The notes beneath the pieces were generated by a model. The model was not told the origin of the DNA. It did not search any database and saw nothing but the letters and a program-made list of their open reading frames with translations. Below, one piece after another: positions 55,526 to 57,633 of a DNA stretch of 64,000 nt. The stretch lies in NCBI RefSeq assembly GCF_013315695.1, contig NZ_CP054353.1, one strand, 5' to 3'. Numbering within the stretch: the stretch's first letter is position 1; every line of letters starts with the position of its first letter. Both the position numbers and the translations under genes were made by a program. This DNA comes from Escherichia coli. GTDB lineage: Bacteria > Pseudomonadota > Gammaproteobacteria > Enterobacterales > Enterobacteriaceae.

Positions 55526-56644
55526 ATGAAATACGATCTCATCATTATTGGCAGCGGTTCCGTAGGCGCTGCCGCCGGGTATTATGCAACCCGCGCCGGT
55601 TTAAACGTGCTAATGACCGACGCCCATATGCCACCGCATCAACACGGCAGCCACCACGGCGATACGCGATTAATTCGCCATGCTTATGGTGAAGGTGAAA
55701 AGTATGTCCCGCTGGTCCTCCGCGCGCAAATGCTGTGGGATGAACTTTCCCGCCACAACGAAGATGATCCCATTTTTGTACGCTCTGGTGTCATTAACCT
55801 CGGTCCGGCTGACTCCGCATTTCTCGCCAACGTCGCCCACAGCGCCGAACAGTGGCAACTCAACGTTGAAAAGCTCGACGCGCAAGGGATTATGGCCCGC
55901 TGGCCAGAAATACGCGTCCCGGACAACTACATCGGTTTATTTGAAACTGATTCTGGTTTTTTGCGCAGCGAACTGGCGATTAAAACCTGGATCCAACTGG
56001 CGAAGGAAGCGGGCTGTGCGCAGCTGTTCAACTGCCCGGTCACCGCAATTCGTCATGACGATGATGGCGTAACTATTGAAACGGCTGACGGTGAGTATCA
56101 GGCGAAAAAAGCGATTGTCTGCGCGGGTACATGGGTAAAAGACCTACTCCCGGAGCTGCCTGTCCAGCCCGTACGCAAAGTATTTGCCTGGTATCAGGCC
56201 GATGGTCGCTATAGCGTGAAGAATAAATTCCCGGCATTTACCGGTGAGCTGCCCAATGGCGATCAATATTATGGTTTTCCGGCAGAAAACGACGCGTTGA
56301 AGATTGGCAAACATAACGGAGGCCAGGTTATCCATTCAGCGGATGAACGTGTTCCGTTTGCGGAAGTGGTCAGCGATGGTTCGGAAGCCTTCCCGTTCTT
56401 GCGCAATGTATTGCCGGGTATCGGTTGCTGCCTGTACGGCGCTGCCTGCACCTATGATAATTCGCCTGACGAAGATTTTATTATCGATACTCTACCCGCC
56501 CACGATAATACACTGCTCATTACCGGCCTGAGTGGGCACGGTTTTAAATTTGCGTCAGTTTTAGGGGAAATAGCTGCCGATTTTGCGCAAGACAAAAAAA
56601 GCGATTTTGATTTGACGCCATTCAGGCTTTCCCGCTTCCAATAA
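55526..56644 (+). CDS. solA: N-methyl-L-tryptophan oxidase SolA
   Basis: 372-aa [37 protein letters not shown]... (FAD-binding GxGxxG). Confidence 0.95.
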
Positions 56645-56653
56645 TCATCATTA

Positions 56654-56678
56654 CGGCCTCCAGAATGAGGCCGTTTTT
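56654..56678 (+). terminator. solA intrinsic terminator
   Basis: Stem cggcctc/gaggccg with loop cagaat, followed by ttttt. Confidence 0.7.
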
Positions 56679-56805
56679 ACAGGAGTATTTAATGCGTCGG
56701 TTGGTGAACTATCTCATTAATAATATTCGCGAGCATCTGATGCTTTATCTTTTTCTCTGGGGACTATTAGCAATTATGGACCTAATCTACGTGTTTTATT
56801 TTTAG
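56665..56805 (+). CDS. yceO: Small hydrophobic protein YceO
   Basis: In-frame ATG at 56665 gives 46 aa ([46 protein letters not shown]); an internal ATG at 56692 has a better SD (AGGAG, 6-nt spacing) and gives 37 aa. Confidence 0.6.
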
Positions 56806-57066
56806 TTTTTCCGCACTGACATAAACTGACAAATATTTAATCTCCCTTTCATTTAGCGTGAAAAATTGAATGAGATTCTTCCTGCCTCTACAGCACTCAC
56901 TAGACCTTCCAGATGCTTAACCCACTAAACTTATGAAGATTCTTTCATTATTAATTCAAAATTATTGAAATAAAAATAAATATCATTCAATTTGTTATTT
57001 TTGTGTTGCAATTCATTCTCCGACACGCCATTTTCTTTCTCTCGCAAATTCGTTTTGGATGCACTT

Positions 57067-57633
57067 ATGTCATTCACAAATACCCCTGAACGCTATGGTG
57101 TTATATCTGCGGCCTTCCATTGGCTAAGCGCAATTATTGTCTACGGCATGTTTGCTTTAGGTCTGTGGATGGTCACGCTCAGTTATTACGATGGCTGGTA
57201 TCACAAAGCACCCGAACTGCATAAAAGCATCGGTATTTTGTTAATGATGGGGCTGGTTATTCGCGTTCTGTGGCGCGTCATATCTCCACCGCCGGGTCCG
57301 CTGCAAAGTTATTCGTCAATGACTCGTCTTGGCGCAAAGGCTGGACATCTCGCATTGTACCTATTGCTGTTCGCCATCGGCATCAGCGGCTATCTGATCT
57401 CAACTGCCGATGGTAAACCGATCAGCGTTTTTGGCTGGTTTGACGTCCCCGCGACCCTCGCCGACGCTGGCGCACAGGCTGACTTTGCCGGTGCCCTGCA
57501 TTTTTGGCTCGCGTGGAGCGTCGTAGTACTGTCCGTTATGCACGGATTTATGGCCCTGAAGCATCATTTCATCGATAAAGACGACACTCTGAAGCGCATG
57601 CTGGGAAAGTCGTCATCTGACTATGGAGTATAA
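57067..57633 (+). CDS. yceJ: Cytochrome b561-family inner-membrane protein YceJ
   Basis: ORF trimmed to ATG 57067 (MSFTNTPERYGVISAAFHWLSAIIVYGMF...), 188 aa. Confidence 0.9.
   Translation: MSFTNTPERYGVISAAFHWLSAIIVYGMFALGLWMVTLSYYDGWYHKAPELHKSIGILLMMGLVIRVLWRVISPPPGPLQSYSSMTRLGAKAGHLALYLLLFAIGISGYLISTADGKPISVFGWFDVPATLADAGAQADFAGALHFWLAWSVVVLSVMHGFMALKHHFIDKDDTLKRMLGKSSSDYGV

Follow-up and report, generated by a model that had tools for sequence, protein, structure and literature searches.

The small membrane protein gene yceO of Escherichia coli is very probably translated from an ATG downstream of the solA hairpin and not from its legacy start

Introduction

Start codons that are annotated too far upstream are a common class of annotation error. 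In vitro ribosome profiling with retapamulin on a synthetic E. coli transcriptome (INRI-seq) exposed such over-extended starts, with 279 genes for which only an alternative translation initiation site (TIS) was detected; uidR is discussed there (PMC9825163). The E. coli gene yceO resembles this class in that its annotated start has no footprint and a reproducible one lies at a downstream in-frame ATG preceded by a Shine-Dalgarno (SD) sequence. It differs in that the start that we regard as false sits inside the terminator hairpin of the upstream gene, and in that the footprint is known in vitro only.

YceO belongs to a family of small hydrophobic proteins of the Enterobacteriaceae (Pfam PF10968, DUF2770), which comprise 36–39 aa, have a polar N-terminus and a single hydrophobic helix, and are encoded directly downstream of solA. 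A 37-aa reading of YceO shares all of these features, the position of the gene being the same in the other 51 loci compared here, and we see no difference from the family. The 46-aa reading, in contrast, places nine residues outside the family model. A literature search for DUF2770 found no papers, and yceO and solA were found mentioned together only as part of a listed deletion.

The region between solA and yceO also resembles intercistronic terminators with partial read-through, as a GC-rich 8-bp stem lies 8 nt after the stop codon, with a T-run and then at once the next ribosome binding site (RBS) behind it, and the stem covaries. Here, however, the T-run measures just 5 nt, and it is lacking in Kluyvera and several other genera.

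Results and Discussion

The solA-yceO locus and its annotation

The window is the whole 64,000-nt stretch of the E. coli chromosome that was analyzed. The gene order in the region is bssS - solA - yceO - yceJ - yceI - trhO, and the features discussed here are listed in Table 1. Over positions 56500–56950 the identity is 100% with strain FDAARGOS_144 and 95.8% with K-12, and the part from around the solA stop to codon 3 of the short yceO (56635–56700) is identical in K-12. Two in-frame ATG codons can open the yceO reading frame. The upstream one (ATG1) begins with two bases of the hairpin loop, A and T, and its G opens the 3′ arm. The peptide from the downstream one (ATG2) is polar over its N-terminal ∼15 aa and hydrophobic over the next ∼22 aa.

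Table 1. Features of the solA-yceO region in window coordinates.
Feature	Position	Strand	Basis or remark
solA CDS, N-methyl-L-tryptophan oxidase	55526..56644	+	ORF list; RefSeq annotation of the 100% identical FDAARGOS_144
solA stop codon TAA	56642-56644	+	8-nt spacer, then the stem
GC-rich hairpin and T5 run, putative solA intrinsic terminator or intercistronic stem-loop	56653..56678	+	sequence, folds, covariation
Hairpin 5′ arm ACGGCCTC	56653-56660	+	sequence
Hairpin loop CAGAAT	56661-56666	+	sequence
Hairpin 3′ arm GAGGCCGT	56667-56674	+	sequence
T5 run after the hairpin	56674-56678	+	sequence
ATG1, legacy start of 46-aa yceO (K-12 b1058)	56665..56667	+	judged a fortuitous codon
Shine-Dalgarno sequence AGGAG	56681..56685	+	6-nt spacer TATTTA before ATG2
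ATG2, start of short yceO	56692-56694	+	sequence; in frame, +27 nt from ATG1
yceO CDS, 37 aa	56692..56805	+	RefSeq WP_001253739.1 for the identical sequence
yceO stop codon TAG	56803-56805	+	sequence; 46 aa from ATG1, 37 aa from ATG2

A preliminary description of this DNA had placed the 46-aa start inside a solA terminator hairpin with a T-tract, had seen no SD in front of it, and had pointed to AGGAG 6 nt before an in-frame ATG as marking the better start. All of these elements are present. The stem that it gave as 56654..56673 is the 7-bp G/C core, which one further A-U pair extends.

Reference resources disagree on the start of yceO. Only the curated legacy record of K-12 MG1655 (NC_000913.3) retains a 46-aa CDS, at 1119307..1119447. 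In RefSeq/PGAP the gene in the identical sequence codes for 37 aa from the base that corresponds to 56692, under the name “YceO family protein”, and K-12 W3110 and O157 are annotated likewise. Protein databases carry both lengths, with 37-aa entries for E. coli, E. albertii and E. marmotae, and with many older NCBI entries of 46 aa. The 46-aa legacy model is presumably also the one shown by UniProt and EcoCyc. The 36 positions of PF10968 align to residues 10–45 of the 46-aa reading (E = 1.3e-21; 76.7 bits against a cutoff of 25), and the family thus begins at Met10. No family was returned when the 46-aa protein was scanned against NCBIfam, and we could not trace the name “YceO family protein” to a model.

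Taken together, the evidence presented below leads us to conclude with high confidence that yceO is translated from the ATG at 56692, led by AGGAG, as a 37-aa single-helix membrane peptide, that the nine extra codons are non-coding, and that the ATG at 56665 is there by chance. The preliminary preference for the shorter start is borne out by the Pfam boundary, the conservation of the start across genera, the covariation of the hairpin, the pN/pS ratios, the INRI-seq data obtained in vitro and the RefSeq annotation. The short start is in itself already known, being annotated in RefSeq, implied by Pfam and listed without comment in a published supplementary table, and yceO is a routine correction of an over-extended start. 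ATG1 probably became the annotated start in K-12 through the longest-ORF rule.

Translation signals and initiation-site data

The best duplex with the anti-SD sequence at the 3′ end of 16S rRNA is predicted at -6.9 kcal/mol before ATG2 versus -1.7 kcal/mol before ATG1, and the opening energy is 12.8 kcal/mol for ATG2 versus 16.5 kcal/mol for ATG1. The G of ATG1 (G56667) is paired with a probability of ∼0.99, and the upstream 8 nt are paired with probabilities of at least 0.98. ATG2 has the arrangement of a canonical SD-led start, in which the SD lies 5–9 nt upstream, whereas ATG1 has neither an SD nor an accessible start codon. Purine-rich SD-like motifs are found at a similar spacing to the yceO start in other genera. 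Chance alone would place an in-frame upstream ATG ahead of any stop in ∼25% of cases, and the existence of ATG1 therefore carries no evidential weight by itself.

These predictions can be compared with published initiation-site profiles, which the preliminary description had named as one way to decide between the two codons. In INRI-seq, the annotated yceO TIS (1119447) stayed below the threshold of 5 CPM in 5/5 replicates (Table S2 of PMC9825163). An alternative TIS, an ATG in frame at +27, was detected at 22.65 CPM in 5/5 replicates (Table S3 of PMC9825163). The yceO oligo used there is identical to positions 56635–56700 of the window and thus includes the whole hairpin. In vitro, with retapamulin and without solA translation, there is accordingly a signal at 56692 and none at 56665. 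A weaker second peak was listed at an ATT codon at K-12 1119348 (+98 nt, approximately position 56763 of the window), with 9.66 CPM in 3/5 replicates and its frame given as “undefined” (PMC9825163); it is probably noise. The Ribo-RET results obtained in vivo by Meydan 2019, as re-analyzed in the same study, give a value of 0 at both yceO ATGs (PMC9825163). The zero at ATG2 is most likely due to yceO being barely expressed.

Protein data are provided by a 2025 proteomics study (PMC12529367), of which the parts dealing with YceO are used here. Chromosomally encoded YceO-SPA was seen there by immunoblot at a level estimated to be at least 10,000-fold below that from pBAD with 0.002% arabinose (PMC12529367), and YceO is listed among the detections by top-down MS (PMC12529367). 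The study built both a synthetic 11-residue N-terminal peptide and an expression plasmid on the 46-aa model, and in these parts the N-terminal peptide of the 46-aa form is reported by MS only from the pBAD24 construct of the 46-aa ORF (PMC12529367). As this peptide came only from the cloned 46-aa ORF, it says nothing about the native start. If the native start is Met10, the designed N-terminal peptide could never be found in wild-type cells, and complementation from the plasmid would express a non-native proteoform.

We propose that ribosomes load on the AGGAG at 56681–56685 and initiate at 56692, as the in vitro footprint shows and conservation supports. The silence of ATG1 would follow from its lack of an SD and from its being locked in a stable stem-loop.

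Conservation of the start across genera

The conservation of the yceO start was examined at the DNA level in 56 loci anchored on SolA, with one genome per species; a search of predicted proteins was set aside since their N-termini depend on the gene caller. Downstream sequence could be examined in 54 loci, and in 52 of these solA is directly followed by the YceO core, which begins 40–131 nt past the solA stop; the core was absent from Enterobacter sp. BIGb0383 (L036) and Shimwellia pseudoproteus (L052). More than 12 genera are spanned, among them Escherichia, Citrobacter, Salmonella, Kluyvera, Kosakonia, Leclercia, Yokenella, Pseudescherichia, Pseudocitrobacter, Pluralibacter, Siccibacter and Intestinirhabdus.

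The codon equivalent to Met10 is ATG in 46/52 loci, GTG in 5/52 and ATA in 1/52, such that a start codon is conserved in 51/52. An ATG at -27 was found only in three Escherichia loci (L004, L006 from E. albertii, and L053) and in one from Kluyvera, where by the comparison it is there by chance. Three other Escherichia species have TTG at this position. Outside Escherichia (46 loci), the upstream frame of 31 loci contains no ATG until a stop is reached, 23 lack any upstream ATG, GTG or TTG in frame, and in 18 an in-frame stop lies no more than 9 codons upstream. Where upstream ATGs do occur, they are at non-homologous positions.

Within Escherichia, pN/pS is 0.06 for codons 10–46 versus 0.48 for codons 1–9, a comparison that draws on a small sample with non-independent pairs, and pS in codons 1–9 is depressed. 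The residues RPFL of the extension, which look conserved, are the 3′ arm of the hairpin and the T-run read in frame (AGG CCG TTT TTA, generally AGG CCN TTT TTA). Judged from these alignments, codons 1–9 show the pattern that is expected of a non-coding element under constraint at the RNA level, and the coding signature begins at Met10. The nine extra codons would then be the loop and 3′ arm of the hairpin, the T-run and the RBS of yceO read in frame.

These data bear directly on the legacy annotation, by which YceO would have 46 aa from the ATG at 56665 and no shorter form. The longest ORF, the entry in NC_000913.3 and the many older NCBI entries of 46 aa speak for it. It is contradicted by nearly all other evidence, including the missing peak in 5/5 INRI-seq replicates, the Pfam model that begins at Met10, and the half of the non-Escherichia loci (23/46) in which a possible upstream start is missing; we regard it as hardly credible. 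We recommend that the K-12 reference record be corrected and that experiments based on the 46-aa form be reinterpreted. The correction also removes the apparent oddity of a coding start buried in a terminator.

Some variation was seen at the conserved start itself. In L025 (positions 1319–1324) the start codon is ATA, with a TTG one codon upstream, and this TTG precedes the conserved ATG also in other loci of the Citrobacter freundii complex (L010, L014, L015, L054). Judged by sequence, the start may have shifted by one codon to TTG in this complex. In E. coli SCU-101 (L003, 693–803) a 3-nt deletion has removed one Asn of an NN pair, giving a YceO of 36 aa, and the SD reads AGGGG and not AGGAG.

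The intercistronic hairpin

The 61-nt segment 56640–56700 folds with a minimum free energy (MFE) of -16.3 kcal/mol (z = -2.5), with the 8-bp stem between solA and yceO as its main feature. This hairpin is the sole robust structure, and it alone is retained in the centroid when 186 nt are folded. Across 30 aligned species from more than 12 genera, the 8 pairs are formed in 93.3% of cells. Compensatory double changes were found in 5 of the 8 pairs, and three pairs show CG<->UA swaps, for example in 9 and 11 sequences. None of 500 shuffles reached the observed covariation, and sliding the register of the alignment lowered the pairing to 29–56%. The compensatory changes in the predicted stem argue that it is conserved as RNA and not as protein.

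The T-run was found in Escherichia, Citrobacter and Salmonella and is missing in Kluyvera-type loci and several other genera. Owing to this restricted distribution, the stem may act as a terminator in some lineages and merely as an intercistronic stem-loop in others. With its U-run of only 5 nt, the site in the window was not called by a simple consensus terminator scan, which marks the T-run as marginal. The supplementary Term-seq tables of Adams et al. 2021, as far as they were available to us, contain no RNA 3′ end at the hairpin site, and an E-value scan of 56300–57200 against Rfam returned no known RNA family. Sequestration of the SD by pairing of AGGAG with a downstream CUCU was considered as a further structure and rejected, as it occurs in one MFE fold and is absent from the centroid, and the fold, at z = -1.25, is no better than shuffles.

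The stability of the hairpin is also relevant for the idea that both starts are used, in which most initiation takes place at ATG2 and ribosomes terminating at the solA stop re-initiate at ATG1 when the hairpin is open, giving a minor 46-aa form in E. coli and E. albertii. ATG1 lies 20 nt downstream of the solA stop and is conserved within these two species, and forced expression from a plasmid shows that the 46-aa protein has enough stability for detection. The INRI-seq template starts 30 nt upstream of ATG1 and is used without solA translation (PMC9825163), so that re-initiation at ATG1 after termination on solA lies outside what such templates can show. On the other side, the G of ATG1 is held in the stable hairpin, an SD is missing, the extension carries no coding signature, most relatives have TTG at -27, lack this codon or have a closed frame, and Ribo-RET in vivo shows nothing at ATG1. 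We therefore give the use of both starts only a small chance.

Transcription of yceO

The shorter start had been expected in the preliminary description to make yceO independent of read-through from solA. This part is not supported. The SD of ATG2 begins 3 nt past the T-run, so that any mRNA with this SD has to start within the terminator or upstream of it, and no promoter-like site was found on the + strand in 56300–57200. The choice of start codon leaves the dependence at the level of transcription unchanged.

The distance from the end of the GC-rich hairpin to the yceO start is 13–30 nt in 49/50 loci and 50 nt in the remaining one (L051). This count comprises 50 of the 52 loci with yceO, as the search for hairpins gave no stem for L045 and returned another, distal one for L046. 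Since the RBS abuts the T-run, no promoter is evident and the spacing between hairpin and start is conserved, we infer that the yceO mRNA would mainly represent solA transcripts continuing past the hairpin. Read-through of this kind would fit the very low native level of YceO reported.

Alternatively, yceO could have a promoter of its own inside the 3′ end of solA, with the hairpin at or near the 5′ end of the mRNA as a stabilizer or partial terminator and with regulation of yceO that would not depend on solA; the 37-aa start would fit this as well. In two transcriptome studies yceO is among the differentially expressed genes and solA is not listed, and by our reading of the sequence a -10-like AATAAT overlaps the solA stop. 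Adams et al. 2021 describe, in the part of that study used here, a Rho-dependent, bicyclomycin-sensitive termination region in the 5′ part of solA at K-12 1120419 on the - strand, which is ∼167 nt into solA (approximately position 55693 of the window); early termination there would limit transcription from the solA promoter. However, a scan of 56300–57200 for sigma-70-like promoters found no site on the + strand, and there is no acceptable -35 at 16–18 nt from the AATAAT. We consider a separate promoter possible but unlikely, and read-through from solA is the explanation that we prefer. The only sigma-70-like match in 56300–57200 is on the - strand at 56961–56990, in AT-rich sequence upstream of yceJ, and the scan gave fewer matches than shuffles predict.

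A more specific role can be envisaged for the hairpin as a conserved gate abutting the yceO RBS, which would set the synthesis of YceO by read-through and tie its output to solA translation. With the solA stop only 8 nt before the stem, a terminating ribosome could modulate hairpin formation. We regard this role as rather doubtful. If true, the linkage of solA and yceO would reflect a partnership of the peptide with SolA or with the cytochrome b561 YceJ.

Gene neighborhood and losses of yceO

The order solA-yceO-yceJ-yceI is kept in Escherichia, Citrobacter, Salmonella and several other genera. In Kluyvera, Yokenella, Pseudocitrobacter and E. albertii, the arrangement solA-hairpin-yceO was found without yceJ and yceI in the flank; the comparison covered loci L041–L047, L049, L050, L055–L057 and L006, together with positions 56806–57066 of the window. 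As solA and yceO stay together where yceJ and yceI are missing beside them, the link of yceO with solA is tighter than that with the cytochrome b561 gene. For the AT-rich spacer of 260 nt between yceO and yceJ of the window, no terminator-like structure was predicted.

The two loci without a YceO-like ORF past solA (L036 and L052), of which L036 keeps yceJ-yceI, are lineage-specific losses of yceO as judged from the genomes compared. In Salmonella enterica subsp. arizonae (L029, 2660–2770) an in-frame stop replaces a conserved Trp (MRRLFLFLVNNIREHFMLYVIL*...), and this ortholog is probably a pseudogene; yceO is intact in subsp. diarizonae (L030). In E. coli S9 (L061, NZ_CP107122.1, 1748–2574) an IS1 insertion has deleted the solA 3′ end together with the hairpin and the N-terminal part of yceO, and what is left is annotated as a partial pseudogene. 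This disruption implies that yceO is dispensable in at least one human isolate. Finally, a SolA fragment 99% identical to that of E. coli was found on a 492-bp contig with a coverage of 0.75 in an assembly of Terrisporobacter petrolearius (L058), and this contig is almost certainly a contamination of that assembly.
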